A stretch of DNA of 63,619 nucleotides from an uncultured Gammaproteobacteria bacterium (GTDB lineage: Bacteria; Patescibacteriota; Patescibacteriia; CAZSQN01), in contig CAZSQN010000004.1 in assembly GCA_964609095.1 (NCBI GenBank), positions 14,663-78,281 on the forward strand, written 5' to 3'. Both the position numbers and the translations under genes were made by a program. The notes under the pieces are model-generated. The model was not told the DNA's origin and made no database searches. It worked only from the letters and a program-made list of their open reading frames with translations. Positions 34,404 through 51,274 of the stretch are shown one piece after another (the first letter of the stretch is position 1; each line of letters starts with the position of its first letter).

Positions 34404-34482
34404 AGCCATAGAGCCGTAAAGCTTTGCAGCTAAAAATCACCTCGCAATACTGCGGGGTGATTTTGTTCAATGCTTAGATTTA

Positions 34483-34665
34483 ACTGATATTAGGTTTCCA
34501 TTGTCATTCCCGCCCCCGGTCGCAGCCGAGGGCAAGCTCCAGCGGGAATCCAGAATTTGAACCCGTAGATTCCCGCTTTCGCGGGAATGACAGATAACTG
34601 GCAAAGTTTAAACCTAAATTTTTGGCTAAATTTATAAACAATTTTTTATAAACCTAATACCAGCT
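34483..34665. repeat. ~185-bp TIR/hairpin element, copy 1
   Basis: Termini tgatattaggttt / aaacctaatac. 89-bp core 34503-34591 is gtcattcccgc..gcgggaatgac. The central 17 nt (34551-34567) is the reverse complement of the same segment in copies 2 and 3. Confidence 0.85.
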
Positions 34666-34670
34666 AATTC

Positions 34671-35744
34671 TTATGAAGCTTGGGCGACGGTTCCTTCATG
34701 CTGCGTGGGGAGAATATCCAGCTTGTCTTTTTCGCGCGCGGCCGCGAGCGCCCTGACGCGCACTTCTTTCATCAGTTTTGGATTTTCTCGCAAGAATTGT
34801 TTGGCCGCTTCTCTGCCCACGCCAAATTTAACGTCGCCTTCTCCGTCGGAGAAAGAATAAGTATTGCCGGATTTTAATACCACTCCCAGCGCGACTCCGG
34901 TATCCAGCAGGTCGCCGGGAACGGAAATCCCCTCGTTGTACATAATGTCAAATTCCGTGGCGCGGAAAGGCGGGGCGACTTTGTTTTTGACGATTTTGGC
35001 CTTAACGCGGTTGCCGATAATTTTTTCTCCTTGTTTTATCTGCGCGGCGCGGCGCACCTCAACTCTTACCGAAGCGTAAAATTTTAGCGCCATGCCGCCG
35101 GTGGTGGTCTCCGGATTTCCGAAGACGATGCCGATTTTCATTCTTGTCTGGTTTATAAAGATAAGCACGGTTTTTGATTTGGAGATAATACCGGTAAGTT
35201 TGCGCAAGGCCTGGCTCATCAGCCGCGCGTGAAGCCCCATATGGGATTCTCCCATTTCGCCTTCAATTTCCGCTTTGGGCACGAGCGCGGCCACGGAGTC
35301 CACCACGATTACATCAACCGCGTTTGAACGCACCAATGTTTCCACGATATCCAGCGCTTGCTCTCCGGTGTCCGGCTGGGAGATAAGAAGTTCGTTTATG
35401 TTTACTCCGATTTTGCGCGCGTAATCGGGATCAAGCGCGTGTTCCGCGTCAACAAAGGCGGCCAGGCCGCCGGCTTTTTGCACCTCGGCCACGATGTGCT
35501 GGGCAAGAGTGGTTTTGCCCGAGGCCTCGGGGCCGTATATTTCTATAATCCTGCCGCGGGGAACGCCGTTTACTCCCAAGGCAATATCCAGCGATAAACA
35601 CCCGGTTGGGACGGCATCTACGATCATTCTTCTGGCTTCGCCCAGCTTCATTATGGAGCCATCGCCGAATCGCTCCTTGATTTGTAAAATCGCTTCCTGC
35701 GCGGCTTTAAATTTTCCCGTCTCCTCCTTTTTTTCTTTAGACAT
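34671..35744 (-). CDS. recA: Recombinase RecA
   Basis: [18 protein letters not shown] Walker A. 357 aa with typical RecA sequence throughout. Confidence 0.95.
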
Positions 35745-35870
35745 AATATAAGCTGTTAGCTGTTAGCTTTTAGCTGTTAGAAGTTGAATTTCTAAAAGCT
35801 ATAAGCTACAAGCTGAAAGCTACAAGCTGAAAGCTGAAAATATCTCACCACAAACCATGGAAACGCGCAA

Positions 35871-36560
35871 CTAACGCACGGCCACTGGCTCCTCATAGAG
35901 CACGCGGCGAAAGATGGTTCTCTCCCTGCTTCTCCGTTTTGAAGCTGAAATTTTAATCAGATTCACTCCGCGTTCCAACCGCACTGTTTCTTTGAACTTG
36001 CCCTGCGTGTCGGAGATAACGTCTTCGCCGTTAATTTGGATGCGCGTTTCCGGCTCGGCGCCGCCGCGGACGATTATCTCTCCTCCTCTGGCCACGGCGT
36101 CTTCGGCCGGTTCAAGTATATAAAGTTCCGGAGGCGAGGTTATTTTTTTCGCTTCCAATCCCAAATAAACAAGAAGCGCCAGGCCAAGAAGGCCGAGCAT
36201 TGTCAGGCGCGTGATAAACACGGTGGGCAAAAGATAGGTTTTTAGAACTCCCGCGCTGGGCGCCAGCCGTTCCGGCGGTTTTGTTTTTTTTGTATTGCTG
36301 GTTTCAAGCTCGTAAAGATCCAAAAAAAATCCGCTGTCTCTGCCAAAGGCGCGGGCATAGGCGCGGATAAAATTTTTTATATAAATTTCTTCGGGAAGAT
36401 TTTCATAGCGTCCGGCTTCCAGTTCCGCAAGGTGGCGTTCGGGAATATGCAAAATCGAGGCCATGGCGGAAAGTTTTACGCGCTTCTCTTCGCGCAGCTC
36501 TTGTAGCCGTTCGCCTAGCTTCTTTTCACGGATTAGTTTTTTGGAAAAAAAACCTATCAT
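35871..36560 (-). CDS. HTH-domain membrane protein (RodZ-like)
   Basis: 229 aa. N-terminal XRE-type HTH (LGERLQELREEKRVKLSAMASILHIPERHLAELE), then a TM helix. Confidence 0.55.
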   Translation of the reverse strand: MIGFFSKKLIREKKLGERLQELREEKRVKLSAMASILHIPERHLAELEAGRYENLPEEIYIKNFIRAYARAFGRDSGFFLDLYELETSNTKKTKPPERLAPSAGVLKTYLLPTVFITRLTMLGLLGLALLVYLGLEAKKITSPPELYILEPAEDAVARGGEIIVRGGAEPETRIQINGEDVISDTQGKFKETVRLERGVNLIKISASKRRSRERTIFRRVLYEEPVAVR

Positions 36561-36615
36561 TCTTTAGCGTATAGCGTATAGCGTATAGACGACCTAAACG
36601 CTAATCGCTAAACCC

Positions 36616-38835
36616 TTATAGGGGGTTTTCTTCATCCTGCTCATTATTTTCCGGTTCGTCAACCATTTCCATTTCCGCCGGGCGCGCGACTAAAATTTCT
36701 CTTGGCTTTGCTCCGTCGCCCGGGCCGATGATACAGTGCTCTTCCATAATATCCAAGAGGCGCGCGGCCCGCGCGTAGCCGACTTTGAGCCGCCGCTGAA
36801 GAAGCGAGGCCGAGGCCTTGCCGGCCATAATAACCAGCGACTGCGCCTCGGGCAAAAGCGGGTCGCCATCGGAGAGGTTTTCTTCAAAAGCGGTAAAGCT
36901 TCTTTGCTGTTTTTCGGTAATGTCTTGATTGTATTCCGGAGCTCCCTGCGTCTTCCAGAATTCCACGACTTTGCTTATTTCATCATCAGCCACATAAGCT
37001 CCTTGCAGCCGTTTTGGTTTGGAGAGTTCGGCGGAAAGGTAAAGCATGTCGCCGCGGCCCAGGAGCTTGTCCGCGCCGGAGGTATCAAGAATCGTGCGCG
37101 AGTCGGTTTGCGAAGCAACGGCAAAAGCAATGCGCGAAGTGATGTTGGCCTTGATAAGGCCGGTGATAATGTCAACGGATGGCCGCTGGGTGGCGAGGAT
37201 GAGATGGATGCCCACGGCGCGGGACATTTGCGCGAGGCGAATAATGGAGCCCTCCACTTCGGACGCCGCCGCCACCATTAGGTCTGCCAGTTCGTCTATG
37301 ACGATAACAAGATACGGCATTGGCTCCTCGGCCGCGTGATTGTAAGAAAGAATGTCGCGCGCCCCGGCTCGCTGAAGCAGGTCAAAGCGGTGGTCCATTT
37401 CGGAGATCGCCCATTTTAAGGCATTAACTGTTTTAGGCACTTCGGTTATCACCGGCGTTATCAAATGAGGAATGTCATTGTAATTGGTAAGTTCCACCCG
37501 TTTGGGGTCAACTAAAATCAGCTTTAGGGTGTCCGGCCCGTTTTCGTAAAGCAGGGACATGATAATGGCGTTAAGAGAAACAGTTTTCCCGGAACCGGTC
37601 GCGCCGGCAACAAGCAGGTGCGGCATTCGGCCGAGGTCGGCAAGCCAAGGATGGCCGGCAACATCTTTGCCCAAAGCCACCATCAGCGAATTTTTCCTCT
37701 CTCGAAACGCCGGCGCTTCCAGCAGTTCGCGCAGTCCCACCGTGGCGATGGTATGGTTAGGCACTTCAATGCCGACCAATGATTTTCCCGGAATCGGCGC
37801 CTCTATCCTTATGGGATGCGCCGCGAGCGCCAGCGCCAGGTCGTTGGAAAGCCCGGTGATGCGCGCGAGCTTGATGCCTTCGGCTGGCTTTAAGGTGTAT
37901 TGCGTGACGGTCGGACCGACAGACACATCGCCCATCTCAACGCTGATGCCGAAATTTTCCAGGGTTTTTCTGATTCTCTCCATGGCCGCGTCAATGTCTC
38001 CGGCCGAGGGTTTGTTTTTTCGCTCGTGCAGGAATTCAAGCGGAACACTGACCGGCAGCCGTTTTGTTTTTTGCGGAGCCGGGCTTGCCGTTGGCCTGCC
38101 CGGCCCGGCTAATACGTTTGTTTTGGCCTGCGGAGCCCGTTCGGTTCTCTCGCCAAGAGAGCGAAAAGAAAAATCCTGATGCCGCTGAAGCTCGTCCGTT
38201 TCCATCCGCGGATATTTTTTAAAAATAAAAGCAAACGAACGGAGCATTTTGAAAATGGACCGCGGAAGCGCCATGAGAACGGAGAAATTTTTAAGCGAAA
38301 GGGAAAAAGTAAGAAAGAGTCCGGCGCAGAGCAGGGTGATAATAACAAGCAAAGCCGCCCAATAGCCCATAATCTTGACCATGGGATAAGCGGTAAGGAT
38401 GCCGAGGTATCCGCCGCCGTCGCCCAGCACGCCCTCCAAGGGATTTGCCTTTTTTTCAATCAGATGAATGGTCCCGTTAACTGACAAAAATAAAATCGCC
38501 AAACCAATCTTACCCTGCGCCCTAGTGGTGATTTTTTCCGGAATGGCGATAATGCCGGAGAGAAGCAGGAAAAAGAGCGGAGTGGCGGCGCGGGTGCGGC
38601 CAAAAAGCGCGGCCGTGGCCTCGTTCCAGATTTCTCCGGCATCTCCGGCAAGCCCCAAGAGCGCGAGCAGGGAAAAGGCGGCGGCGGCAAAAAGAAAAAT
38701 AACGGCAATGCCGCGGCGGGTTTCTCCCGGAACGTTATTCCAGACGCTTTCTCTTTGCCGATGGCGGCCTCCTCCGTCGCGAAAGTTTCGGAGAGCCGGC
38801 CTTTTTTCTCTGGTTTGGAATCTGCGGTTCCTCAT
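36616..38835 (-). CDS. ftsK: DNA translocase FtsK
   Basis: 739 aa. N-terminal TM helices, HLLVAGATGSGKTVSLN Walker A, and a C-terminal winged-helix gamma-like domain. Confidence 0.92.
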   Translation of the reverse strand: MRNRRFQTREKRPALRNFRDGGGRHRQRESVWNNVPGETRRGIAVIFLFAAAAFSLLALLGLAGDAGEIWNEATAALFGRTRAATPLFFLLLSGIIAIPEKITTRAQGKIGLAILFLSVNGTIHLIEKKANPLEGVLGDGGGYLGILTAYPMVKIMGYWAALLVIITLLCAGLFLTFSLSLKNFSVLMALPRSIFKMLRSFAFIFKKYPRMETDELQRHQDFSFRSLGERTERAPQAKTNVLAGPGRPTASPAPQKTKRLPVSVPLEFLHERKNKPSAGDIDAAMERIRKTLENFGISVEMGDVSVGPTVTQYTLKPAEGIKLARITGLSNDLALALAAHPIRIEAPIPGKSLVGIEVPNHTIATVGLRELLEAPAFRERKNSLMVALGKDVAGHPWLADLGRMPHLLVAGATGSGKTVSLNAIIMSLLYENGPDTLKLILVDPKRVELTNYNDIPHLITPVITEVPKTVNALKWAISEMDHRFDLLQRAGARDILSYNHAAEEPMPYLVIVIDELADLMVAAASEVEGSIIRLAQMSRAVGIHLILATQRPSVDIITGLIKANITSRIAFAVASQTDSRTILDTSGADKLLGRGDMLYLSAELSKPKRLQGAYVADDEISKVVEFWKTQGAPEYNQDITEKQQRSFTAFEENLSDGDPLLPEAQSLVIMAGKASASLLQRRLKVGYARAARLLDIMEEHCIIGPGDGAKPREILVARPAEMEMVDEPENNEQDEENPL

Positions 38836-38896
38836 AAATCTTTTCTATTTTAACATAAAAAAAACCTCGGCGCCAGCCTAGCCCGGTTAAAATTCA

Positions 38897-39055
38897 TCCC
38901 AAAAGGGCTGCAAAGGAAGCACCAACGATTATTGCGGTTTTGAACCAGCTGCGCTTTTTCTGCGGAGCTTTGCTCCGCGAGACCCCGACCGTAATCGGAG
39001 AATAGGCGCGCTGGTTTTTGCCGCAAACGTTATGCTCCTCCGCAGCCCTTTGGGG
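38897..39055. ncRNA. Candidate structured RNA / long rod-like imperfect hairpin (strand unknown)
   Basis: cccaaaagggctgc pairs with gcagccctttgggg. Inner helices are aacg/cgtt, ttgcgg/ccgcaa, aaccagc/gctggtt and gcgc/gcgc, with an apex of two small hairpins. No ORF. Confidence 0.3.
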
Positions 39056-39073
39056 ACACAACTTAATTATATA

Positions 39074-39255
39074 ACTGATATTAGGTTTATGAAAAATTGT
39101 TTATAAATTTAGTCGAAAATTTAGGTTTAAATCCTGCTAATTATTTGTCATTCCCGCCCCCGGTCGCAGCCGAGGGCAAGCTCCAGCGGGAATCTACGGG
39201 TTCAAATTCTGGATTCCCGCTTTCGCGGGAATGACATGAGAAACCTAATATGAGT
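39074..39255. repeat. ~185-bp TIR/hairpin element, copy 2 (arms inverted relative to copies 1 and 3)
   Basis: tgatattaggttt ... aaacctaatatga. Core at 39147-39235. Confidence 0.85.
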
Positions 39256-39280
39256 TCATATTTAAAAATTAGAGAAATAG

Positions 39281-39328
39281 AAAAGCCCCCACACCGGTTC
39301 CGCCTTTGGCGGATTGGTATGGGGGCTT
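39281..39328 (-). terminator. Terminator hairpin ending the GC-rich module
   Basis: aagccccca...tgggggctt stem followed by a T-run on the minus strand, just downstream of the stop at 39351. Confidence 0.55.
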
Positions 39329-39350
39329 GTTGCGGGAGAGCGGGTCGGCC

Positions 39351-39494
39351 TTACTTCCAGAGCTCGGCGTGGTCCCCCTTGTGGCGGACCTCATAGCCCT
39401 TGGCCTCGGCGTCGGCGATCGCCTGCTTCTCGTTCAGGCCGCCTCCGAAGACGATGACTCCGACCCTCTTCGGCTCCTTCTTCTTCTCGGCCAT
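39351..39494 (-). CDS. GC-rich module ORF 1 (47 aa), unknown
   Basis: MAEKKKEPKRVGVIVFGGGLNEKQAIADAEAKGYEVRHKGDHAELWK. AAAGGAGAAG SD 5 nt upstream. The longer track ORF is an Arg/Gln-rich out-of-frame extension. Confidence 0.55.
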   Translation of the reverse strand: MAEKKKEPKRVGVIVFGGGLNEKQAIADAEAKGYEVRHKGDHAELWK

Positions 39495-39508
39495 CTTTCT
39501 TCTCCTTT

Positions 39509-39766
39509 CTAGATGTTGGCCTGCTTGTTGAGGCGGTTGATGTGGCTGCGGATTCTCATCACGCGTTCGGGGTGGCCGGTGAGGTCTCCCCTGCGGCCGA
39601 GCTTCTTGAACTTGCGTTCGGCGCGGTTCGCCTCCGTGAGGAGGTTGCGCCGCTTGTTCGCTCGGCGCGTCGTCTCGCTGTACCTGCTCGGGCCGCGGAC
39701 CTTGACCTTCTCGCCGTCGCCCTTCTTCTTGCCTCCGCCGCCCTGTCCTCTGTTCCTCTGTCCCAT
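39509..39766 (-). CDS. GC-rich module ORF 2 (85 aa), very basic, unknown
   Basis: MGQRNRGQGGGGKKKGDGEK...KFKKLGRRGDLTGHPERVMRIRSHINRLNKQANI. GGGAG SD upstream. The stop is 14 nt before ORF 1. Confidence 0.6.
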   Translation of the reverse strand: MGQRNRGQGGGGKKKGDGEKVKVRGPSRYSETTRRANKRRNLLTEANRAERKFKKLGRRGDLTGHPERVMRIRSHINRLNKQANI

Positions 39767-40125
39767 GTCTTTGTCTCCCTTCTTTGCTGGTTGATTGTTG
39801 TCCCGACATGAAGTCGGGATCCCGACCGAAGTGTCGGGAAAAGATCCATGTTCCAGACCCGTCCCGCAGAATTGCAGGACAGATTCAGAATAAGGATGGG
39901 GAGTAGTAGAGCAGAGCTCACTACTCCCCGAGGGAAGGAGGCGCTATTTTTGTTTGCGTCCCCTCCCCGGTAGAGCTGATTTCGGCTCGAGGACGCTCAA
40001 GCACCTCGCCGTCTTTTTAGTATGTGCTCCCGATCGCGGTATAGACGGAAACTCCCGCGTCGGGTTTATCTGATCGAACATTTCTTGCCTTTCTCGGCCA
40101 TCTCACAAGAGAAAGCCGCCAGGGG

Positions 40126-40533
40126 TTAGAAGTCGCTCATGATCTCGTGCGTAGAGTCCGACCAGGAGAGAACTTCGTCGGAGGCAAGAAGATGGTCTTG
40201 CCACTCCTCCGCGATCTCACGCTCTTGCCGTACCGCTTCGGGTTCGTAAAGTTCGATATCGTTGCCAATTCGAATTACGAGTGTCAGCTGCGGGATTTCG
40301 AAGTCAGAAGAGGCAAGCCGCATGAACGGACGCATATTTCGCATGCGCCTAGTGCGCTCGGCCTTGGCACGCTTCTTTTCGGCTCGACGCAGAAGGTGCA
40401 AGACGCGCCTCTGCATGCGACTGGTGCCCCAGACGAGCTTTACCGCCTGACTTGAAGTGAGTGTCCTCTTACTGCTCGCGGTGCAACACACCTCTTCGTA
40501 GATTTGAAACGCTTGATTTTCCGAGAGTCGCAT
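40126..40533 (-). CDS. GC-rich module ORF 3 (135 aa), unknown
   Basis: Single long ORF with balanced composition, preceded by the conserved box at 40563-40579. Confidence 0.55.
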   Translation of the reverse strand: MRLSENQAFQIYEEVCCTASSKRTLTSSQAVKLVWGTSRMQRRVLHLLRRAEKKRAKAERTRRMRNMRPFMRLASSDFEIPQLTLVIRIGNDIELYEPEAVRQEREIAEEWQDHLLASDEVLSWSDSTHEIMSDF

Positions 40534-40562
40534 TATTGGCCCTTTCTTTGTTTGGCCATTTT

Positions 40563-40610
40563 TTGAATGTCCGTCTTAACGCGCGAATTTTTGCTCGTGC
40601 GTTCAGATGG
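40563..40610 (-). promoter_or_regulatory. Conserved upstream box pair (copy B)
   Basis: ttgaatgtccgtcttaa (40563-40579) and ttcagatgg (40602-40610) recur at 43531-43547 and 43576-43584. Both lie between a terminator hairpin and the next start codon. Confidence 0.45.
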
Positions 40611-40720
40611 AAGCCCCTCTGTGAGAACCACAGAGGGGCAAAGGAACTAGGTGGGAACACCCACCCGTCGCCCAAGGAAACGAAATTGCAAGCAATTTCG
40701 TGACCACGGGTCGGGGCAGG

Positions 40721-41713
40721 CTACTTCTTGAGCGAGTCGGCCTTGGCGGCCGCCGCGATGAGGAGACCGACCCTGAGCGGCTGGCGCTCGGGTTCGGGCT
40801 CGGGAGGCGGCACGAAGTCGTCCGTCTCCTCCGAGAGCCCGGCCGCGAGGGCGAGTCCCTCGTCGACCGCCTCGCGTTCGCTCGGGACATCCTCGTGCTT
40901 GGTCGGGGGAGCGGAACGCTCGGGCTTGTCCTTGGGCTTGGAACCCTTGGGCTTGCCGTTGTTCCGCTGGGGCGCCGGGGCCGTCTCGGGAGCGAGGTAC
41001 TTGGCGTAGCGGTTCCTGGCGGACTGCCTGGCCGTATCCTCGGCGGCCTGGCGGCCCATCTCGCTCGCCTTGCGCTGGGCGCTGACCAGGTCACCCTTCT
41101 GGAGGTACAACCCCCGGAAGAGCTCCTTGTTCTTGCCCTGCGCGCGCAGATACGCGGTGGCGTCCTTCTCCGGAACCGAGCCGATGATCTGGCCGTTCCG
41201 GATGAGGAACCAGTTCGCGCCCTTGGCGTCGGTGGGGCCGACGCAGCCGAGCTCCTGACCTTCGGTGAGCTCCGCCTCGTTCTTGGCGAACGAAACGAAG
41301 AAGTCCTCCACCGTGCGCCGGCGCTCGTTTTCGGAGATGAGGCGAGCGAGGTGTTCGATGTTCTGCTGGAGCGGGAAGCTCCTGAACTCGAGCCTCTCGA
41401 GACCCTTGACCTCCTCGCTGTTCGCGCGTTCGTGCTGGAAGCAGAGCACCCTCCGCTCCAGCACCTCGCGCCGCTGCGTCTCCTCGCCGCGGTAGTTGAC
41501 CACCGGGGCGAAGCGAGACACCTCGACCATGTACAGCGCCGAGATGATCTTGCCGCTCTTGAGCTGGATCTTGTCGCCGGCCTTGGCGACTCGCGTGCAC
41601 TTGAGGCCTTCCTCACAGTACTCGCAGTGAAAGACGTGCTCCTTCCACGTCTCCGGGTCGCGCGGGTTGATGCCCTCGAGCGCCTTGGTGATGTTCTTCT
41701 CGTTCTGGTCCAT
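40721..41713 (-). CDS. GC-rich module ORF 4 (330 aa), unknown; disordered Pro/Lys/Glu-rich C-terminal third
   Basis: Starts MDQNEKNITKALEG after gaaaggaaataaaa. This frame has a protein-like composition, whereas the other long overlapping frames are Arg/Ser- or Leu/Gly/Arg-rich. Confidence 0.7.
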   Translation of the reverse strand: MDQNEKNITKALEGINPRDPETWKEHVFHCEYCEEGLKCTRVAKAGDKIQLKSGKIISALYMVEVSRFAPVVNYRGEETQRREVLERRVLCFQHERANSEEVKGLERLEFRSFPLQQNIEHLARLISENERRRTVEDFFVSFAKNEAELTEGQELGCVGPTDAKGANWFLIRNGQIIGSVPEKDATAYLRAQGKNKELFRGLYLQKGDLVSAQRKASEMGRQAAEDTARQSARNRYAKYLAPETAPAPQRNNGKPKGSKPKDKPERSAPPTKHEDVPSEREAVDEGLALAAGLSEETDDFVPPPEPEPERQPLRVGLLIAAAAKADSLKK

Positions 41714-42147
41714 TTTTATTTCCTTTCGTTCTGTTTTCGGTTGACTTGCCAGAGCACCATGCCCGGGCAAAATTTCCCGCCAAGTCAAAGAGCATGCCTC
41801 TCTCCGCAATGGAGAGGGGCTCGCGTGAAGCAACAATTTAGAAAGAACAATGCATCCTATTATCTATCAATTCATCCGATAGCTAGTGATACTGTCTGAT
41901 TCAGAAGTTGTCGCCTCGCGTGAAATTTTTTTTTGTTCCAGCAGATTTCATATCTGAAGGGAGAATTTGGGCGCTAAGTGTTGTAAAAGGAACACTATAA
42001 TTTGCCCCTCCTGCCCTCCAGGTATGAAATCTGCAGTTCTTTTACTTTGTAATGTCCGATCTCATTTCAGATGACAATTTTGATTCATCATTTCAAATGA
42101 AATCCTATTTATGAGCCCAATAGGAAGGGATTGAAAGAGCGGGCGAG

Positions 42148-42537
42148 TTAATCGATCTCGTCGAAGTCGGGATCGGAGTCGGAAGGGACCGGCTGCTCCT
42201 GCGCGCCCGGGTCCGTCTCGTCGTGGAGCTCGAGCTCGGTGGGGACCTCGGCGGCGGCCTCGGCTCGCGCCATCTCGTGGTTCGGGCAGTCCGGGTTGCC
42301 GCAGTCCGGCAGTTCGCCGCCGAGCAGCTGCTCGATCGCGTCGTCTCGGACCCCCGCGGCGATCTCGTTTCTGACATCGGTGAGACCCGCGATGATCTCG
42401 TCCAGCGTGGAGAGCGTGGAGATCGGCCCATGGGGAACGGCCTCGGACACCATCTCCTCGCCTTGGCGCATCAAGCCGACCAATGCTTGGGTGATTTCCT
42501 TGATGACCTGGTCCTCGGCGGTCTTCTGCTCGTCCAT
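42148..42537 (-). CDS. GC-rich module ORF 5 (129 aa), strongly acidic, unknown
   Basis: Starts MDEQKTAEDQVIKE after an AAAGGAGAAG SD. Has a CGNPDC motif and ends DPDFDEID. Confidence 0.6.
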   Translation of the reverse strand: MDEQKTAEDQVIKEITQALVGLMRQGEEMVSEAVPHGPISTLSTLDEIIAGLTDVRNEIAAGVRDDAIEQLLGGELPDCGNPDCPNHEMARAEAAAEVPTELELHDETDPGAQEQPVPSDSDPDFDEID

Positions 42538-43206
42538 CTCTCTTCTCCTTTTCAAAGGTCTTGAACCAATAGTCGCGCGCCTTATTGCCCGCAACCTCGA
42601 TTCAATAAATTTGGAGGCGAATTGCTGTTCTGCAAAATGCGGAACAGTTTTTAACATCGCTTCGCGGATAGAATCAGTATCACCCCGCACTTTTTCCATT
42701 GATATTTTTGTTTTTAGTACGGCAGAAGGCGAAGTTGACTTCGTCTGCGTCTGTACAATAAAAAGTTAAATATCCTTAGAAAAAGTGCGGGGTAAACCGG
42801 TTTTATCTGCCTTTGATGCCGTCCCAAGCCCCTCCAATTTTGGATTTAACTTGGGTCTCCCCTCCATACTTATTGTTACGAATCATGAAGCTTGTCCCGC
42901 CGCTTCTTTAATTTAAAACGGAATAGGCGGGATCCCGCCGTGGCGGGAAATCATGAATCATGGATGTTGAATTTTTTATGAACTTTTCAGTATAGGGCAG
43001 AAACTTAAAAAAGTCAAGCTCCCGCCCTTTTCTCAAAACACCTTCTTGAATGAAGCTGTTTTCAGAAAACTTGCTCGGATTCCAGCCTTACCGAGCATGG
43101 CTACTCCGTTAATAGCCCAACGGAGTCAAAAGGATTCTTCGTAGTTGTAGGAACTAACGTTTACGCCGAAACCCCATCGTGTCCTCCTTGTTTGGCATTT
43201 GCCGAG

Positions 43207-43506
43207 CTACTTGCCGTCCGGCCGAGTGAACTCGTCCATGATGGCGTACTCGGCTGCTCCCTGACCGTTGTCGCGGTCGTAGAGGCGCATGTCGAGCGCG
43301 TCGCTCGTGATGTCCACCTTCATGACCCTGCCCTTGAGGTAGTCGAAGTAGATGCGCCGACCCTTCTGGAACGAGTCCAGAATCTTCTGTGCTTCTTCCA
43401 CGGTCATTGGGGTGGGGTCGAAGTGTAGGAACCCCACGCCCTGACAGCGCGCCCGGTTGTAGAGCGCCATGAGCACGCGCGCCTTGTCCATTCCCGCGAT
43501 ATTCAT
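43207..43506 (-). CDS. GC-rich module ORF 6 (99 aa), unknown globular protein
   Basis: Starts MNIAGMDKARVLMALYNRARCQGVGFLHFDP after an AAAGGAGAA SD. Confidence 0.65.
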   Translation of the reverse strand: MNIAGMDKARVLMALYNRARCQGVGFLHFDPTPMTVEEAQKILDSFQKGRRIYFDYLKGRVMKVDITSDALDMRLYDRDNGQGAAEYAIMDEFTRPDGK

Positions 43507-43530
43507 GAGTTTCTCCTTTGTCAGTTGTTG

Positions 43531-43584
43531 TTGAATGTCCGTCTTAATTTCCCTCCGTAGAATTGCGGAGAGAGATTCAGATGG
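43531..43584 (-). promoter_or_regulatory. Conserved upstream box pair (copy A)
   Basis: Same ttgaatgtccgtcttaa and ttcagatgg boxes as at 40563-40610. Preceded on the minus strand by the hairpin cccgaatgagttcttcattcggg. Confidence 0.45.
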
Positions 43585-43623
43585 GAACCCGAATGAAGAA
43601 CTCATTCGGGTGAAAGGGGCTGG

Positions 43624-43890
43624 CTACTGATCCATGTCGGTGAACTCGGCGAGGAGCCGGTTCAGTCGAGCGACACCGGGGTCCGAAAGCCGCGAGATGC
43701 GGTCCCCGTCCCGGAACCATCGGCCGGTGACCTCATCCTCGTCGCGGAGGCGGGCGACCTCGTTCTCGAGTTCGTTGCCGGCGAACGCATTGAGCGAGAT
43801 CATGACCGGAACGATGTCCGGCTCCGTGACCTCGTCATCGATGTCGGGGACGAGCCCGAGCTTCCGGGCCAACATCGTGTGAAAGAGCAT
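43624..43890 (-). CDS. GC-rich module ORF 7 (88 aa), acidic, unknown
   Basis: Starts MLFHTMLARKLG after gaaaggaaaaaag. An alternative start at 43941 is possible. Confidence 0.5.
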   Translation of the reverse strand: MLFHTMLARKLGLVPDIDDEVTEPDIVPVMISLNAFAGNELENEVARLRDEDEVTGRWFRDGDRISRLSDPGVARLNRLLAEFTDMDQ

Positions 43891-44078
43891 CTTTTTTCCT
43901 TTCTGTTGTGCTTTTGGGCCGCGGATTATTTTTTTATCCACAGCTTATTGTAGCCATACTATAACACATATCTAAAATCCTGTCAAGTGTTTTGGGTCAG
44001 TTTCCTATATTTTTGGCCTGTTTTAGCCATTTTATAGCGTCAGAAATGGACAACAAATGGCATTTTTTAAGAATGAAT

Positions 44079-44216
44079 TCATATTAGGTTTTTCATGTCA
44101 TTCCCGCCCCCGGTCGCAGCCGAGGGCAAGCTCCAGCGGGAATCTACGGGTTCAAATTCTGGATTCCCGCTTTCGCGGGAATGACAAATAATTGGCAGAA
44201 TTTAAACCTGTATTTA
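44079..44216. repeat. ~185-bp TIR/hairpin element, copy 3 (long arm truncated)
   Basis: tcatattaggttt. Core 44097-44185 is identical in plus-strand orientation to the copy 2 core, but the arms are in the opposite order and orientation. Confidence 0.85.
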
Positions 44217-44335
44217 GAAAACCTGCCCGAATCCAGCAATGCTGCGGGATTCGGGCAGGATGTCGGCATTGAGGCGGCAAAAAACAAAACCCCGATTGTG
44301 GTCGGGGTTAAAAAAGATCAAAACTTTCTAAAAAA

Positions 44336-45193
44336 TCAGCAGCCGGAGTAGGTTTCTACCGCCGCCGCTCCCGCAACCGGAGTGACTCCGTAAAGTTCGT
44401 ACTTGAACATGGTCTGGCCAAGAGCGGTGGAGATGGCAGTGTATTTCACCCGTTCTCCGGCCGCGAGATAGGCAAAAGCGGTGTTTGGCCGCTTGATCTG
44501 GCTCATATGAACGCGCGCCTCGGTCAGCTCTCCATTTTGGAGAACGTACACGCTGCCCCAATGCTGGGATGGGTTGTAGTACTTGACCACGCCTTCTTCC
44601 GGCCAGACATCGGGCTGCTCTTCTTCGTCGGGAACATACTCCGAGCTGTTTGCGAGCTTTGCTCCGGCCAATACCTTGTTTAGAATCGCGTTCAGATCCG
44701 CCCATCTGAAGTAGACAGGTTCAATCACCGAGCCATTTTCGGCGCGGCAAGCGCGGCCTGTGTAAAGCCGGGTGTTACAAACCAGATAGAAGCTGCCTTT
44801 CTGGCAGACGATGGAAATTTCTTCAATCCGCCAGTTGCCGTCTTTGCTCCAGTAAAGCAAGCGGACGACATTTTGGGGAAACTTGGTGTACAGTTCGCCG
44901 CTCTCGTTGGCAAAGATGTACACGCTCTTTCCATAGAGCGCGTAAAGAGGATTTTCCGGCGCCATGTCGCGGCGGCGCGCGATGTTCTTCTTTCCGTCTT
45001 GCTCAAAGACAACCGGCGCGCCATCAGGGCTTCTGGGCGCGACAATCGCCAGCTCAAAGGACTTGCCAACATGCCGATGAAGATGATTGCCGATGCAAGC
45101 GGCAGAAAGATTCTCTGCCGTCACGCCGTTTCCTCTATCCGGCACGATTTCTTCGTTATCGTAGAAAACGCGAATGTCGAGCGGCTGTTCCAT
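44336..45193 (-). CDS. Hypothetical protein with cold-shock-domain-like C-terminus
   Basis: 285 aa with a GGGAGAGG SD. GVVKYYNPSQHWGSVYVLQNGELTEARVHMSQI resembles the CSD pattern G.VKWFN..KGFGFI...DVFVH.S.I. Confidence 0.6.
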   Translation of the reverse strand: MEQPLDIRVFYDNEEIVPDRGNGVTAENLSAACIGNHLHRHVGKSFELAIVAPRSPDGAPVVFEQDGKKNIARRRDMAPENPLYALYGKSVYIFANESGELYTKFPQNVVRLLYWSKDGNWRIEEISIVCQKGSFYLVCNTRLYTGRACRAENGSVIEPVYFRWADLNAILNKVLAGAKLANSSEYVPDEEEQPDVWPEEGVVKYYNPSQHWGSVYVLQNGELTEARVHMSQIKRPNTAFAYLAAGERVKYTAISTALGQTMFKYELYGVTPVAGAAAVETYSGC

Positions 45194-45360
45194 TTTTCCT
45201 CTCCCTGCCCCGAACGAAGTTGAGGGGCTTTGTTGTGTTTGTCCGCCAAAATTTTCGTTTCACGAAAACTTGGGCGGGGTTGGTTGTGCAAAGACCGCAC
45301 TTGCTTCTGTTTAAGGCAAGAGCAAATGAATACTAAACAATAACACGATTTTACTATTCG

Positions 45361-45403
45361 GTCAAGCCCAGCACATAATGTTTTTTATGTGCTGGATTAT
45401 GTG
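45361..45403. repeat. CAGCACATA family, minimal palindrome form
   Basis: gtcaagcccagcacataatgttttttatgtgctgg, immediately downstream of the typA stop. Confidence 0.7.
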
Positions 45404-45408
45404 CGGGG

Positions 45409-47238
45409 TTAGCGGTCGCTTCTTTTGCGCTCTAAAGCGTTAAGGATGGTTTTGCGGATTCTGATGTTTTTTGGCGTTACTTCCACCAGTTCGTCATCGC
45501 CGATATATTCAAGCGCGTTCTCAAGCCCCATAACACGGGACACATCAAGCGCTTCGGCCACGCCATCGCCCTTGGAGCGCATATTGGAAAGCTTTTTTTC
45601 TTTGCAGACATTTACGGCCAAATCCTCGGGTTTGGCATTTTCCCCAACCACCATTCCTTCATAAACGGTCGTGTTTGGGCCGATAAAAAGAGTTCCTCGC
45701 TCTTGCGCCGCGAGCAATCCATAGTTGTTGGAAATGCCGGATTCAAAAGCAATAAGCGAACCGTGAGGAGAGGCCTCAAAGTCGCCTTTGTATTGCTCAT
45801 AACCCAAAAACAAGCTGTTCATTATGCCCAGTCCCTTGGTATCGGTGATGAACTCATTGCGGTAGCCGATGAGTCCGCGGGTTGGAATGACAAATTCCAT
45901 AAAGGCGGTTTTGCCTTCCACTTTCATATCTTTCATCTCGCCTTTGCGAATGCCCATTTTGGCAATGACAGAACCGGAAAATTCTTCCGGACATTCTATG
46001 GTTAACTGTTCGACCGGCTCCATTTTTTTGCCGCCTATCTCCTTATATATAACTTGCGGACGAGATACCTGAAGCTCGTAGCCCTCGCGGCGCATTTTTT
46101 CTATTAAAATGGAAAGATGCAACTCGCCTCTGCCGGCAACAACCCATTTGTCGCCGGAGTCGCCGGGCAGAACTTTTAGGGCAATATCCGTTTCCAGTTC
46201 GCGCTCCAGCCGTTCTTTAAGATTGCGCGAAGTGGCGTATTGCCCTTCGCCTCCGGCAAAAGGAGAAGTATTGACGCCGAAGGTCATTTTAACCGTCGGT
46301 TCTTCAATGGCGATTGTCGGAAGAGCAATCGGGTCAGACAAATCCGCAAGCGTTTCACCGATGGAAATATCAGGGATGCCGGCCACCGCGACAATGTCGC
46401 CGGCTTCGGCTTCATCAACCTCAATTTTGTTCAAGCCGTCAAAGGTCATAACGGAAGCGAGTTTGGCCTTGCTGATTTTCCCTTCGCGGTTTATATGCGC
46501 CAATTCCGCGCCCTTTTTAAGAGTGCCGGAATACAGGCGGCCGATGGCGATTTTTCCTTTGAAGTTGTCATAAGCCAAATTTACGGTAAGCATTTGCAAA
46601 GGAGCGGTTTTATCAGCTTTAGGCGCGGGAATAACTTTAAGAATGGTTTCAAATAACGGCGTTACATCTTTCATCTCCGAAAGCGCCGGCGCCAGCCCCG
46701 CCTTTCCGGCGATAGCCGAGGCGTAAATGACGGGAAAATTTGTCTGCTCGTCGGAAGCGCCAAGGCCAACAAAGAGATCAAACGTCTGGTTAAGCACCCA
46801 ATCGGGCCTGGCGTCGTGTTTGTCTATTTTGTTTATGACGACGATTATTTTGTGTCCGGCGGCAATGGCCTTTTTAAGCACGAATTTGGTTTGCGGCATC
46901 GGGCCCTCTTTGGCGTCAACGAGCAATAGTACGCCGTCAACCATGCGCATAATCCGTTCAACTTCTCCGCCAAAATCAGCGTGGCCGGGAGTGTCCACGA
47001 TATTTATTTTGATATCTTTATAAATTATGGAAGCGTTTTTGGAAAAAATGGTAATGCCGCGTTCGCGCTCCAGCTCGTTACTATCCATAATCAGTTCGTC
47101 AAATTGAAGTTTTCCGCCTAAGGCGGATCCGCCTCTGGCGGAGAAATTTTGCGATTGCTTCAATAGAGAATCAACCAAGGTGGTTTTACCATGGTCAACG
47201 TGGGCGATAATGGCGATGTTTCTGATTTCTCTGGTCAT
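45409..47238 (-). CDS. typA: Translational GTPase TypA/BipA
   Basis: 609 aa. [31 protein letters not shown] and NKID motifs. Confidence 0.93.
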
Positions 47239-47305
47239 GTTCTTAACTTAAAATCCCGCTAAGCGGGACCTACGAATAGTCATCATAGCTGATTTTAGGA
47301 ATAAA

Positions 47306-47447
47306 GTCAACCCAGCACATAGTTTTGGCGCAAAAGCAGTTTTATTGTCATGCAATCTAAAATTGCGCTTTGATAATCTGTCTCTGTGATTCTAAATAAA
47401 TGTTTTAGGCTAAAACTATGTGCTGGGGTCAATCCCGCCCCCCCCCA
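47306..47447. repeat. CAGCACATA family MITE-like element
   Basis: gtcaacccagcacatagttttgg ... ctaaaactatgtgctggggtcaatcccgccc. Confidence 0.85.
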
Positions 47448-47636
47448 TTAATTTTAAATTTCAGATTTATGATTTTAGATTTTAAATTTTAAATCCGCAA
47501 CCCGCAATCTGAAATCTAGAGAGATGTGGATAATTTGTTGAGAATACATGGTTTTTAACCAAAATTAGGCGCGATTTGGCTTATAATGAATAAAATTTGC
47601 AGCTGATTTGACAAACCCCATCTTTTCGTTAGGCCC

Positions 47637-47665
47637 TTGACAGGTTTGGGGGTAATGTGTAATAT
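47637..47665 (+). promoter_or_regulatory. Strong sigma70-type promoter for rpoBC
   Basis: TTGACA-ggtttgggggtaatgtg(17)-TAATAT, ~225 nt upstream of the rpoB ATG. Confidence 0.55.
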
Positions 47666-47808
47666 CTATATATAAATGGTGGGTACCCATTGCGGGGCCC
47701 TATTGTTTTTCTCGGTTTCTTTTTGAATGGATATCGAGATTTTGTCTAAAATTAGCTATTTTTCCGTGGGTCTATTTTTAAATCAAAACCAAATCCCACG
47801 TTCTTAGA

Positions 47809-47845
47809 ACTCACCCCCCACCTATGGGGAGGGAGTTTTTATTTT
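47809..47845 (+). terminator. Terminator-like hairpin inside the rpoB leader (possible attenuator)
   Basis: actcacccccc-acctat-ggggagggagt followed by tttttatttt, ~45 nt before the rpoB start. Confidence 0.4.
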
Positions 47846-47888
47846 ATAAAAACTTAAAATTAAAAAATAATTTGAATTATTTTTTTTT

Positions 47889-50800
47889 ATGACCATGCAG
47901 TTCAAAAGGCGCGAGATACTAACGCCCGAACGCCGTTATTTTGATTGGGCGCCGGACGCCATGAATCTGCCCGATTTGATAGAAGTGCAGAAACGTTCTT
48001 ATAAATGGTTTTTTGAACAGGGGCTGGGAGAGCTTTTCCGCGAAACATCCCCCATCAAGGATTTTATCGGCCGCGATCTGGAATTGTATCTTGACGATTA
48101 TTATCTGGACGAGCCCAAATTTGACGAGGTGACAAGCAAGGCCAAAAACATTACCTTTGAATCGCCGCTTCGCGTTAAGGCGCGATTAGTTAATAAAAGA
48201 ATCAACGAAACCAAAGAGCAGGAGATTTATTTGGGCGACATTCCGATGATGACCGACCGCGGAACTTTTATCATCAACGGCATTGAGCGCGTAGTTGTCT
48301 CCCAGCTTATCCGTTCCGCCGGCGTCTTTTTTACTTCGGAATTTAACCGTGGCAGAAAATTTTACGGCTCCAAAATTATTCCCAACCGCGGCGCCTGGCT
48401 GGAAATGGAAACAGACACCTCCGGCGCCATTTGGGTTAAAATTGACAGGAAGAGAAAAGTGGCCGTCACTTCTCTTTTAAGGTCATTCGGCTACGGAACA
48501 GACGAGAAGATTTTATCTCTTTTTGCCGACGCGGACACGCATCCGACAACTAAATACATAGAAGCAACTTTGGCCAAAGACACCGCCAAAAACGAAGACG
48601 AAGGCCTGATTGAAGTATATAGGCGCATCCGTCCGGGGGATCTGGCGACGGTTGACAATGCCCGCTCGCTTATCCACTCAATGTTTTTTAATTTTGACCG
48701 CTATGATTTGGGCGTAGTCGGACGCTATAAATTTTTCCAGAGATTCCATTTGCCGGCGACCAAAGACCAGATTGAACTGCCGGAAAACAGAATTTTAAAG
48801 CCGGAAGATTTGGTGGTCATCATCAAAGAGCTTATTCGCCTAAATAACACGCAGGAAGAGCCGGATGATGTTGACCATCTTGGCAATCGCCGCGTGCGCG
48901 CCATCGGCGAGCTTATCCAGAATCGTTTCAGGGTCGGCCTTGCCCGCATGGAAAGAATAGTTAAGGACAGGATGTCAACTTTGGACGTAAATAATCTCAC
49001 GCCGGGAAAACTGATAAACGCGCGGCCGGTCATTGGCAGCGTGCGTGAGTTCTTTATGAGCTCCCAGCTTTCCCAGTTTATGGACCAAACCAATCCTTTG
49101 GCCGAGCTTGAGCATAAGCGCCGCCTTTCCGCCATGGGCCCGGGCGGGCTCTCGCGGGAGCGCGCCGGCTTTGACGTGCGCGACGTGCATCCTACCCATT
49201 ATGGCCGCATCTGCCCGATTGCCTCTCCGGAAGGCCCGAACATTGGGCTGGTGGGGCACTTGGCAAGCTATTCTCGCATCAATGAATACGGTTTTATTGA
49301 AACGCCTTACCGCAAAGCGGTGAAAGATAAAAACGGCCGCGCCAAAGTCACGAATGAAATTGAATGGCTTAACGCTTTTGCCGAAGAAAAGGCCATTACC
49401 ACCGCGGCTACAACGCCGATTGACGAAGATGGATATTTTATAAATGAAAAGGCGCCGGTGCGCAAATTCGGCGCGCCTTCCACGGAACTCACATCCAATA
49501 TTGAATATATGGATGTTTCTTCAAAGCAGATTCTTTCCATTTCCACCTCGCTGATTCCGTTTGTGGAACACGATGACGGAGCAAGAGCGCTCATGGGCAC
49601 GAACATGCAGAGACAGGCCGTGCCTTGCATTAAAGCGGACGCGCCTTTAATCGGCACGGGAGTTGAGGGCCGGGCGGCCCGCGATTCCGGACATGTGGTT
49701 CTTGCCGAAAAGGCGGGCGTGGTTGCCGGCGTGCAAGGAGACAAAATAGAAATTGAGAGCGATGAGGGCAAAACATATTCATACCGTTTAAATAAATTCG
49801 TCCGTTCCAACGCCTCAACCTGCCTTAACCAGCGGCCATTGATTAAAAAAGGCCAGAAGGTTAAAAAGGGCGATGTTCTGGCTGACGGGCCGTCAACGCA
49901 AAACGGAGAACTGGCGCTTGGCCAAAATTTGCTGGTTTCGTTTCTCTCCTGGGACGGATACAATTATGAGGACGCGGTGATTTTGTCCGAACGGCTGGTG
50001 CATGACGACAGGTTTACCTCAATTCATATTGAAAATTATCAAGTGGAAGTTCGGGATACGAAATTGGGAGCTGAAGTGGTGACCTCCGACATCCCCAATG
50101 TTTCCGAAGAAAAACTTAAAAATCTTGATGTTGACGGCATTGTGCGCATCGGAGCCGAGGTTAACTCCGGAGATATTTTAGTCGGCAAAATCACGCCGAA
50201 AGGAGAAACCGAACTTTCTGCGGAAGAGCGATTGCTGCGCGCCATTTTTGGCGAAAAGGCGCGCGATGTGCGCGACTCTTCGCTTTATCTGGAGCACGGC
50301 GAGCATGGAAAAGTCGTTGATATAAAGGTTTTTTCGCGCGAAGAGGGCGACAAGCTTTCTCCCGGCGTCATTAAAATGATTCAGATTTCGGTTGCCGACC
50401 TGCGCAAGATTCAGGTGGGAGACAAAGTTGCCGGCCGTCACGGGAACAAGGGAGTTATTTCAAAAATCGTGCCTTTGCAGGATATGCCTTATCTTCCTGA
50501 TGGAACTCCGATTGACGTTATTCTTTCCCCTTTAGGAGTTGTGTCGCGCATGAACTTAGGACAGATTTTGGAAACGCATCTGGGACTGGCGGCAAACAAG
50601 CTTGGCTATCGCGTGGCCACTCCGGTTCTAAACGGGGTTACCGAAAAGCAGATTAAAAGCGAACTTGTCGCCGCCGGCTATCCGGAGGACGGACAGACCA
50701 CTCTCTATGATGGCAGAACCGGAGAGTCGTATGACCGCAAAGTCACAGTAGGTTATGTTTATATGCTGAAGCTCAATCACATGGTGGAAGACAAAATCCA

Positions 50801-51158: not shown

Positions 51159-51179
51159 AAAATAATTCTTTAATGTGGT

Positions 51180-51274
51180 AACTGCCGTTGTACGGCAGTT
51201 AAGCGCAGCGAGACACAGCCGAAAGTGAGGGCGAGTAGATGAGCCCGAACGGGAGGATGTGTCGGAAGCGAGCA
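51180..51274 (+). promoter_or_regulatory. Conserved structured leader, copy 1 (abuts the rpoC ATG)
   Basis: 9-bp hairpin aactgccgt-tgt-acggcagtt, then AAGCGC..CGAGACAC..CGAAAGTGAGGGC..GCCCGAACGGGAG..GTGTCGGAAGCGAGCA-ATG. A homologous element lies at 59144-59232. Confidence 0.6.

Follow-up and report, generated by a model that had tools for sequence, protein, structure and literature searches.

Most genomic islands are AT-richer than the genome that hosts them. Chromosomal hotspots of horizontal gene transfer, of which the work of Oliveira and colleagues in 2017 reportedly gives an example, offer the first comparison for the locus analyzed here, a 4.8-kb block of seven small open reading frames (ORFs) directly upstream of ftsK. 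The block spans positions 39256–44078 of a stretch of 63,619 nucleotides (hereafter the window) from contig CAZSQN010000004.1 (assembly GCA_964609095.1), which belongs to a metagenome-assembled genome (MAG) of Patescibacteria (candidate phyla radiation). Like transfer hotspots and islets, the block lies beside fixed core genes, varies in content, is atypical in composition, consists mostly of orphan ORFs (ORFans) and carries no mobility genes. Unlike them, it keeps a backbone (ORF6, a promoter with its leader, ORF4 and ORF2) across saturated synonymous divergence, and unlike most genomic islands it is GC-richer than its host, with a surplus that has not been ameliorated. Candidate-phyla-radiation genomes are tiny, which makes every retained accessory locus informative; this one has been kept by ftsK through divergence that saturates synonymous sites, yet it is compositionally foreign and turns over its ORFans. 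No paper on the accession was found in the literature, and a paper on horizontal transfer in Patescibacteria (PMC12455944) served as general background only.

A preliminary description had read the block as a captured operon from a high-G+C donor, possibly the host organism of an episymbiont, or as the remnant of a small mobile or viral genome, delimited by inverted copies of a hairpin element. Comparison with relatives leads to another view. The block is very probably a syntenic locus conserved within a clade, to which the hairpin elements are incidental. Its nature is read here, with a probability of about 0.5, as that of a clade-specific accessory islet or gene-influx hotspot upstream of ftsK that is fed from a GC-rich pool.

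Composition and setting of the block

The window has a mean G+C content of 0.476, and its minus strand carries, in order, typA, an orphan gene of 285 amino acids (aa), the block, ftsK, a helix-turn-helix (HTH) gene of the HTH_25 type (RodZ-like), recA, copy 1 of the hairpin element and efp. Positions 34911–51713 correspond to NCBI contig JACOZF010000008.1 (GCA_016181485.1), with a 99.99% match. All seven ORFs of the block are on the minus strand and have the lengths first reported (47, 85, 135, 330, 129, 99 and 88 aa for ORF1 to ORF7). In a 100-nt profile, G+C content was 0.62–0.76 within these ORFs and 0.30–0.46 between them. G+C at third codon positions (GC3) was 0.86–0.92, ORF3 excepted (0.64), as compared to 0.28–0.67 in 36 background genes of the window; first and second positions gave about 0.6–0.7 and 0.33–0.48, respectively. 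When all window ORFs of at least 45 aa were scanned over the 63.6 kb, the combination of GC3 ≥ 0.72 and coding periodicity was found in the block only. Lysine is encoded by AAG in 53 of 53 cases, isoleucine by ATC in 32 of 33, and leucine by CTC in a proportion of 0.74 versus 0.16 for CTG, and just 10% of the codons have A or T at the third position. This signature (CTC over CTG, AAG, ATC, GTC over GTG) is referred to below as the codon dialect of the block. The G+C profile, the GC3 of each gene and codon usage all bear out the earlier remark that coding here is unlike that in the rest of the window: the block genes are genuinely coding, and their codon usage is compositionally foreign relative to their surroundings.

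Purine-rich Shine–Dalgarno sequences, which had been noted before, precede all seven ORFs and are of host type (AAAGGAGAA, AAAGGAAA or AAGGGAGA). The spacers measure 359, 187, 434, 669 and 117 nt; the previously given lengths of 434 and 669 nt were recovered, whereas that of 316 nt was not reproduced. Spacer G+C is 0.36–0.54, versus 0.415 for background intergenic DNA, and the spacer segments that are not conserved in relatives have 0.36–0.47, with no GC enrichment. A host-type small repeat had also been pointed out in one spacer, the GTAGTAGAGC hairpin (GGGGAGTAGTAGAGC...GCTCACTACTCCCC) at 39897–39929. Two further copies do exist, one in the window (15744) and one in a spacer of a relative's module, which is thin evidence that the repeat is of host type.

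Neighbors of ftsK in relatives, and the hairpin elements

Counterparts of the block (together with it, the module) were found beside ftsK in no fewer than three other lineages of Patescibacteria. In L023, a 6.6-kb Logan contig, a 155-aa gene is followed by an ORF6 homologue (74% identical), a 0.9-kb spacer, an ORF4 homologue, genes of 176 and 49 aa, an ORF2 homologue, a 63-aa gene and ftsK. In L028, an ORF4 homologue, a 177-aa gene, an ORF2 homologue and a 63-aa gene precede ftsK (75% identical over its full length) and HTH_25. In L029, a 33.8-kb ENA contig, three small ORFs, a 1-kb spacer, an ORF4 homologue, a 140-aa gene and a degenerate ORF2 lead to ftsK (75%), after which HTH (64%), recA (88%), efp (87%) and further genes keep the order of the window. 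L030 (Logan) encodes the same ORF4-family protein as L029, and two short contigs (L031 and L032) represent two further ORF4 lineages with the same upstream leader. The FtsK proteins of the module-bearing lineages are about 75–79% identical to that of the window, and all FtsK relatives recovered come from Patescibacteria MAGs. Since order and orientation are the same in the other lineages, the module is a conserved neighbor of ftsK in a narrow clade, of which only three to five lineages are known, forming a star-like trichotomy.

The flank ftsK-HTH-recA(-efp) is shared and gene content turns over in L023, L028 and L029, as in accessory islets. Each lineage has small ORFs of its own, of 155, 176, 63, 46 and 49 aa in L023 and 132, 81, 93 and 140 aa in L029, and ORF1, ORF3, ORF5 and ORF7 in the window. 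By contrast to what a recent island would show, the core genes and the leader occupy the homologous site in L023, L028 and L029/L030. That a separate operon, or a mobile or viral genome of small size, had been captured here between two hairpin elements is not supported, ORF6, ORF4, ORF2 and the leader being syntenic at ftsK elsewhere; the same genes, with the same composition, in L023/L028 and L029/L030 are what the preliminary description had itself named as speaking against its interpretation. The search for an empty site that it proposed gave none usable: 19 ftsK loci of GTDB representatives (FtsK at most 58% identical), which hold neither module nor hairpin element, are too distant, and the closer relatives carry the module without the element.

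The upstream flank of the module is not conserved or not recoverable. At the start of L023 (1–115) and L029 (1–111) lies the end of a GC3-rich plus-strand ORF, with homologous Trp-rich C-termini (...WSLSWHWLGDGWSRRARLVRVSE and ...WSLYWDRLELGWSRSGRLVRLSNPT, each up to the stop codon) and a terminator hairpin after it; both assemblies break at the same place. As both contigs start in this ORF, the module would reach further upstream in those lineages.

The hairpin element is about 185 bp long and occurs in the window at 34476–34666 (copy 1, between recA and efp and unrelated to the block), 39073–39256 (copy 2) and 44064–44215 (copy 3). It consists of a short arm, a 91-bp core (GTCATTCCCGC...GCGGGAATGAC) bounded by perfect 12-nt inverted repeats (TGTCATTCCCGC and GCGGGAATGACA) and a long arm, and it ends in terminal inverted repeats of 16 nt that are 94% complementary (AACTGATATTAGGTTT / AAACCTAATATGAGTT in copy 2). 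It is thus a short non-coding element with terminal inverted repeats and three copies in the window, and in its multiple intergenic copies and its insertion polymorphism with respect to relatives it resembles miniature inverted-repeat transposable elements (MITEs) with internal hairpins; unlike these, it has a nested invertible architecture. It may also resemble the ATTCCC-N8-GGGAAT repeats of Neisseria. Relative to the arms, the 67 nt inside the core are inverted in copy 2 as compared to copies 1 and 3. In copy 1, inversion affects a 17-nt inner segment (TACGGGTTCAAATTCTG, between GCGGGAATC and GATTCCCGC). Apart from this, all three copies have a 100% identical core, while their arms are only about 90% alike.

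Copies 2 and 3 do bracket the block with their short arms inward, as originally described. However, their 91-bp cores, 100% identical, are in direct orientation while the arms are inverted, and copy 3 (short arm, core, truncated long arm) breaks off at a repeat within the long arm and has no outer terminal inverted repeat. Alignment with L023 and L028 showed copy 2 (long arm, core, short arm) to be a clean insertion between the terminator hairpin of ORF1 (AAGCCCCCACACC...GGTATGGGGGCTT, minus strand, 39283–39328) and the −10 box of ftsK. In those two lineages the homologous hairpin abuts the ftsK −10 box GTTATATAAT, with no element there; in the window, copy 2 now provides the −35 region of the ftsK promoter. 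The flanks of copy 2 are AT-rich (..ATATG / ATATA..) and no unambiguous target-site duplication was seen. No copy was found in any relative's locus, and an exact scan for the core found none in GTDB representatives. Absence from the relatives' loci, together with the insertion of copy 2, indicates that the elements are secondary insertions; on these alignments they would be MITE-like, inserted in the window lineage only, and would neither define nor mobilize the block.

The block shares with composite transposons and MITE-flanked segments the presence of two flanking element copies with terminal inverted repeats and inverted arms. Unlike in such units, one copy lacks its outer terminal repeat, there is no transposase, and relatives hold the segment element-free at the same site, for which reasons a composite transposon or MITE-bounded unit was rejected; no second location of the block segment was found. 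Recent capture from a high-GC donor, whether of an operon or of a small mobile or viral genome delimited and perhaps mobilized by two hairpin elements, could draw on the foreign-looking composition, on the identical cores of the bracketing copies and on a 4918-bp Logan contig that corresponds to the block from core to core. The ends of that contig are de Bruijn breaks at the repeat, and the element-free modules of relatives, the incomplete copy 3 and the lack of transposase or integrase make recent capture very improbable. Bracketing repeats plus atypical composition are, as this case cautions, insufficient to define a mobile element.

Hardly credible, by the same comparisons, is an assembly artefact in which a circular replicon of about 4.9 kb, or foreign DNA, was threaded through the shared 91-bp core. 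Direct, identical cores would allow a short-read graph to yield a circle (core, short arm, module, short arm) and an empty site reading long arm, core, long arm. In both products, however, the element would have a non-canonical form. The block itself turns up unchanged in Logan assemblies from several runs of one project and in a second NCBI contig of 78 kb, and the relatives' module is contiguous with ftsK, and repeat-free, in unitig-level Logan contigs and in the 33.8-kb ENA contig. The earlier conclusion that the block is no chimera is upheld, on this repeat-free contiguity and on recurrence in other assemblies.

A 131-nt inverted repeat pair (19319–19449 / 47306–47436, 89% complementary) has one copy in the typA-rpoB spacer. 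Because of a near-match to the GTCATTCCCGC motif at 47428–47438, it may be a related small mobile element.

Source of the GC-rich coding sequences

In relatives the module is GC3-rich as well, with values of 0.72–0.95 in L023 and 0.74–0.75 in L028, versus 0.45 for ftsK in each, and of 0.61–0.79 in L029, versus 0.37–0.46 for housekeeping genes. The surplus over neighboring housekeeping genes thus amounts to about 0.25–0.45, and the relatives' modules use the block's dialect too (CTC over CTG, AAG, ATC). Synonymous divergence between lineages, as the proportion of differing synonymous sites (pS) in ftsK, HTH, recA and efp, is 0.57–0.78, saturated or nearly so. Amelioration was estimated with a two-state model in which each synonymous site had undergone a minimum of one substitution in each lineage. 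Under this model an imported GC3 surplus would fall to about 14% or less, that is, to below 0.07, as against the 0.25–0.45 observed, so that a single ancient import followed by neutral amelioration does not fit. We infer that the GC3 surplus is actively maintained, or that the coding sequences are younger than the locus.

Active maintenance is part of one alternative, a vertically inherited operon-like cluster, maybe serving cell division or the nucleoid in view of its place next to ftsK and a rodZ-like gene, whose GC-rich synonymous sites are maintained by selection (on codon choice or on properties of the mRNA) or by biased gene conversion and are not imported anew. Position, order and orientation are indeed fixed in all known lineages, the terminator by the ftsK promoter is homologous, mobility genes are absent, and the GC3 offset is roughly constant, at about +0.3, over hosts with 0.5–0.6 (window), 0.45 (L023) and 0.37–0.46 (L029), as expected if the mutation bias of the host were balanced by a force specific to these genes. 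This alternative is nevertheless somewhat unlikely, given that gene content differs by lineage and that lineage-specific ORFs are GC3-rich too, an example being ORF5, inserted in the conserved leader. Conserved and expression-linked genes (rpoB, rpoC, recA and those for SSB, S6 and EF-P) show no such bias, with GC3 of 0.37–0.59 in the window and L029, which makes strong translational selection unlikely. Regional biased conversion is disfavored, since it should enrich non-conserved spacers, yet these remain at the host-like values given above. An intrinsic GC bias of the ORF6 family was rejected: in 80 IMG/VR loci the GC3 of the gene tracks the G+C of the contig (r = 0.85; gene minus contig mean 0.005), and homologues in AT-rich phages reach GC3 values as low as 0.12–0.3. 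Were selection to maintain GC3, it would be a rare case of gene-specific selection on synonymous sites in a slow-growing organism with a reduced genome.

The sole clear outliers from the relation between gene and contig G+C are L039 and L041 (IMG/VR 3300025875_000007 and 3300004213_000012). There the ORF6 homologue (8001–8318) has a GC3 of 0.90 on contigs of 55–56% G+C, well above its surroundings.

Recurrent influx from a GC-rich pool of Patescibacteria or phages is the explanation of the composition that we tentatively prefer, at a little under even odds. Single ORF6 homologues at unrelated loci, on low-GC Patescibacteria-like contigs, are GC3-elevated: 0.74 versus 0.35–0.48 in L024, 0.70 versus 0.45–0.52 in L026 and 0.60 versus 0.25–0.32 in L027. 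These elevated copies agree with repeated delivery from a GC-richer pool. As for the pool, L004 (JAHFIW010000016.1, MAG nzgw371), whose RpoB is 77% identical and which is the nearest of the GTDB representatives, has a genome of much higher G+C (58%), housekeeping GC3 of 0.74–0.79 and the CTC/AAG/ATC dialect of the module, and L025, a phage-like contig of 63% G+C with a close ORF6 homologue, has a CTC-type dialect, whereas most other GC-rich loci sampled, which are viral, are CTG-type. The dialect common to L004 and L025 makes a donor pool in Patescibacteria or their phages no less likely than a cellular host. The proposal that the donor was the host of an episymbiont is therefore left without support, and the CTC-type dialect is one more point against recent capture. 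In L004 the rpoB-ftsK interval is only 1.6 kb long and holds a Cys-rich 168-aa orphan.

ORF6 is the one gene of the block with relatives in phages. Its homologues occur in 15 phage records and 166 IMG/VR matches and occupy phage early regions, as in Dulem virus 39, where the gene lies between those for SSB and SMC-like/RecT proteins, downstream of CI/Cro. Of the viral connection first suggested, the block shows this one gene of a phage-common family and no hallmark gene. In agreement with the initial reading, searches of Pfam, PHROGs, NCBIfam and PADLOC revealed no integrase, transposase, Rep or capsid protein in the block; the seven proteins had no significant match except ORF6 to phrog_12532 (of unknown function), and nine proteins of the relatives' modules likewise matched no family. 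With that match as the only one to PHROGs or Pfam, a prophage or integrated virus was rejected on hallmark genes.

The block resembles prophage remnants and phage morons in its small genes with their own promoter or Shine–Dalgarno sequence and hairpin terminator, in a family typical of phage early regions, and in small acidic and basic proteins. Unlike them, it has no integrase, repressor, capsid, terminase or other PHROG-recognizable gene, and its other genes were not found in phage records. With integron arrays it has in common small co-oriented orphan ORFs, hairpin spacers and the lineage-specific gain of a single ORF; unlike these arrays, it has no IntI and no attC-like family, its spacers are long and in part conserved regulatory DNA, and its ORFs have their own promoters. 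An integron cassette array was rejected, there being no tyrosine recombinase in or beside the block and no repeated family among the inverted repeats of the spacers. Also rejected was an integrative mobile element exploiting Xer/dif recombination (IMEX), since the single match to a relaxed dif pattern, at 6246, is at chance level and distant from the block. The occurrence of ORF6 in phage early regions, the small products that are acidic with a Cys motif or very basic, and the moron-like units faintly suggest a phage-related role, such as host take-over, exclusion or counter-defense.

In the influx-hotspot reading, the islet would have a fixed chromosomal site, immediately upstream of ftsK-HTH(RodZ-like)-recA, within a small group of Patescibacteria from groundwater. 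Its backbone would comprise an ORF6-family gene, then a strong sigma-70 promoter driving a structured leader, an ORF4-family gene and the basic ORF2, with hairpin terminators between units; around it, each lineage would place its own small acidic, basic or Zn-ribbon ORFans, here ORF1, ORF3, ORF5 and ORF7. Every unit comes with a host-type Shine–Dalgarno sequence, and several also with a promoter or terminator of their own, so that the host cell would express them as independent small genes. ORFs would be drawn, replaced and supplemented from a GC-rich pool with the CTC/AAG/ATC dialect, by which coding sequences would stay GC3-rich and regulatory spacers host-like. The locus would most likely be a long-lived influx hotspot, or else what remains of a phage-like element that had integrated. 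If the GC3 surplus does come from continuing influx, the locus would reveal an integration hotspot and an unseen GC-rich mobile gene pool, probably of phages.

Several observations weigh against this reading. No integrase, att repeat or dif-like site was found, and no mechanism for repeated site-specific influx is visible. ORF6 set aside, no module protein of the window, L023 or L029 matches a phage, plasmid, PHROG, Pfam, NCBIfam or PADLOC entry. The six other window proteins and 10 proteins of relatives have no phage match, and in tblastn of the concatenated module proteins against phages and plasmids ORF6 alone matched, the relatives' proteins giving none. In 80 viral loci no other module gene co-occurs with the ORF6 homologues. 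The dialect match of L004 comes from two genes and, beyond these, a crude ORF filter. The L023 and L029 contigs open inside another GC3-rich ORF, short of the module's upstream end, and the star-like trichotomy cannot separate vertical descent with maintained codon bias from recurrent replacement.

Leader, proteins and minor features

In the spacer between ORF6 and ORF4, DNA conservation across lineages equals or exceeds that of ftsK (about 70%), and the promoter and leader there are conserved more strongly than the ORF4 protein. A conserved non-coding block downstream of ORF6 (42973–43195, minus strand) holds a sigma-70 promoter, TTGACT-17-TATACT (43017 to 42989), that is near-invariant across lineages; its surroundings are 87.5% identical over 64 nt to L023, and the region downstream of ORF6 is 68.7% identical over 246 nt to L029. 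Further along, 42809–42875 shows 81% identity over 67 nt between lineages, and 41821–42021 shows 75–77% over about 200 nt. The latter contains a long hairpin (CTGGAGGGCAGGAGGGGCAA...GCGCCCAaAT.C.CCCTTCAG), two TCACGCGAG boxes and a palindromic CTATC-N9-GATAG motif, and is part of the structured leader directly upstream of ORF4 (41714–42045, minus strand), which includes CACTAGCTATCGGATGAATTGATAGATAATAGGAT and is conserved at the DNA level with L023, L029, L031 and L032. The counterparts of promoter and leader lie at 1780–2700 in L023, 1430–2430 in L029, 150–535 in L031 and 1–240 in L032. Compared to shuffled sequences, the fold of the leader RNA had z = −5.9 (332 nt, window) and z = −8.1 (387 nt, L029). 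Covariation amounted to 1–3 compensatory pairs only, a count that is nearly uninformative because the sequences are few and highly similar.

An Rfam cmscan of 34000–46000 (E ≤ 1) returned only spurious microRNA and small-RNA matches to long hairpins. Exact scans with a 20-mer of the leader had no match among GTDB representatives or in IMG/VR; in JGI metagenomes there were three matches, on GC-rich brine contigs, attributable to chance. We read the spacer as a putative conserved promoter and structured 5' leader controlling ORF4, or possibly a non-coding RNA; the leader is accordingly a candidate for a new cis-regulatory or non-coding RNA. One further alternative brings in this leader: a conserved set in a foreign dialect, with GC3 of about 0.9 kept for function against the equilibrium of the genome, for example for tuning of products or transcripts to a GC-rich partner, and with ORF4, of new fold, under a highly conserved, undescribed leader RNA of about 300–600 nt. 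The partner could be a host cell, or a resident phage of high G+C that keeps overwriting the locus. We hold such a set to be decidedly unlikely.

ORF4 (40721–41713, minus strand; GC3 0.92) is the gene that best marks the module. Among 5.8 billion proteins, a word-indexed search found no relative, and an exhaustive HMMER search of 1.84 billion representatives found four, which align across the first ~240 residues with conserved His/Cys positions; the family numbers five representatives in that set. The protein has a conserved H/C/C/H set near the N-terminus, a folded domain at residues 20–240 and, beyond residue 240, a disordered Pro/Lys/Glu-rich tail followed by a C-terminal helix; its identity between lineages is 27–38%. 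ORF6 (43207–43506, minus strand; GC3 0.86) belongs to a large uncharacterized family that comprises over 1000 homologous clusters and has 14 invariant alignment columns. AlphaFold models had a predicted local distance difference test (pLDDT) score of about 90 over residues 20–240 of ORF4 and of 86 for ORF6. Foldseek (E ≤ 0.001) gave no PDB match for either model and no BFVD match for ORF4, and the alignments of ORF4, ORF6 and ORF2, used as profiles against PDB sequences, matched nothing, consistent with the earlier failure to recognize these proteins. On its model, ORF4 is predicted to have a new fold. The two families, with confident and unmatched predicted folds, are targets for experiments, as is the conserved leader; the interest of the locus now lies in this leader, the predicted fold of ORF4 and a GC3 surplus undecayed across saturated divergence.

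The very basic ORF2 (39509–39766, minus strand; GC3 0.90) has no Pfam or PDB match. It is kept in L023 and L028, with 41–42% identity over the full length and 47–51% in the best local segment, and is degenerate in L029. The other four ORFs, all on the minus strand, are specific to the window lineage. ORF1 (39351–39494; GC3 0.92) has an unrelated 63-aa ORF in its place in L023 and L028. ORF3 (40126–40533), of which NCBI annotates the last 69 codons alone, is replaced in relatives by an unrelated Cys-rich gene of 140, 176 or 177 aa. The acidic ORF5 (42148–42537; GC3 0.88), with the motif DCGNPDCPNHE, lies in a segment of about 0.5 kb that is missing from the leader of L023 and L029, and by this comparison appears to be a gain of the window lineage. 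ORF7 (43624–43890; GC3 0.87) is acidic and has a near-consensus promoter upstream, TTGACA-17-(TG)TATAGT (43958–43986, minus strand).

Three successive hairpins (40613–40710, minus strand) just past the ORF4 stop form a terminator region that is 77% identical over 79 nt to L023. An imperfect hairpin with 35-nt arms, 83% complementary, lies between conserved blocks at 42682–42793; it is absent in relatives, gave spurious Rfam matches to plant microRNA precursors on both strands, and is probably another small inserted element.

In the presumed 5' untranslated region of ORF7 (43934–43942, plus strand) there is a perfect DnaA box (TTATCCACA), and a second is found between typA and rpoB (47525–47533, minus strand). 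The expected number was 0.24, and two were reached in 1/100 shuffles; the minimum of cumulative GC skew is near 9–10 kb, away from both boxes.

The 285-aa orphan between typA and copy 3 (44336–45193) has a GC3 of 0.65, second among the 36 background genes after 56338–57735 (0.67). It matched nothing in Pfam, PHROGs, NCBIfam or PADLOC, the relatives' loci contain no homologue, and it may be part of the variable region. AT-rich islands at 14001–16000 and 58001–59000 (G+C 0.32–0.36) are an anomaly opposite in sign to the block; an ORF at 58191–58922 (243 aa, 0.28 G+C) had no Pfam match. Hairpins in which arrays of TTTAGGG/TTTAGCG-like heptamers, which resemble telomere repeats, oppose each other lie at gene ends (29556–29624, 30085–30153, 36565–36633, 24150–24191 and 60008–60049), one of them directly after the HTH gene next to ftsK, and are probably a terminator or repetitive extragenic palindrome-like family. 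Finally, the start of the window (1–540) carries near-perfect direct repeats with a period of 106–123 nt, in which 1–47 equals 124–170 (100%) and 324–365 and 386–434 pair with 432–473 and 492–540, respectively.

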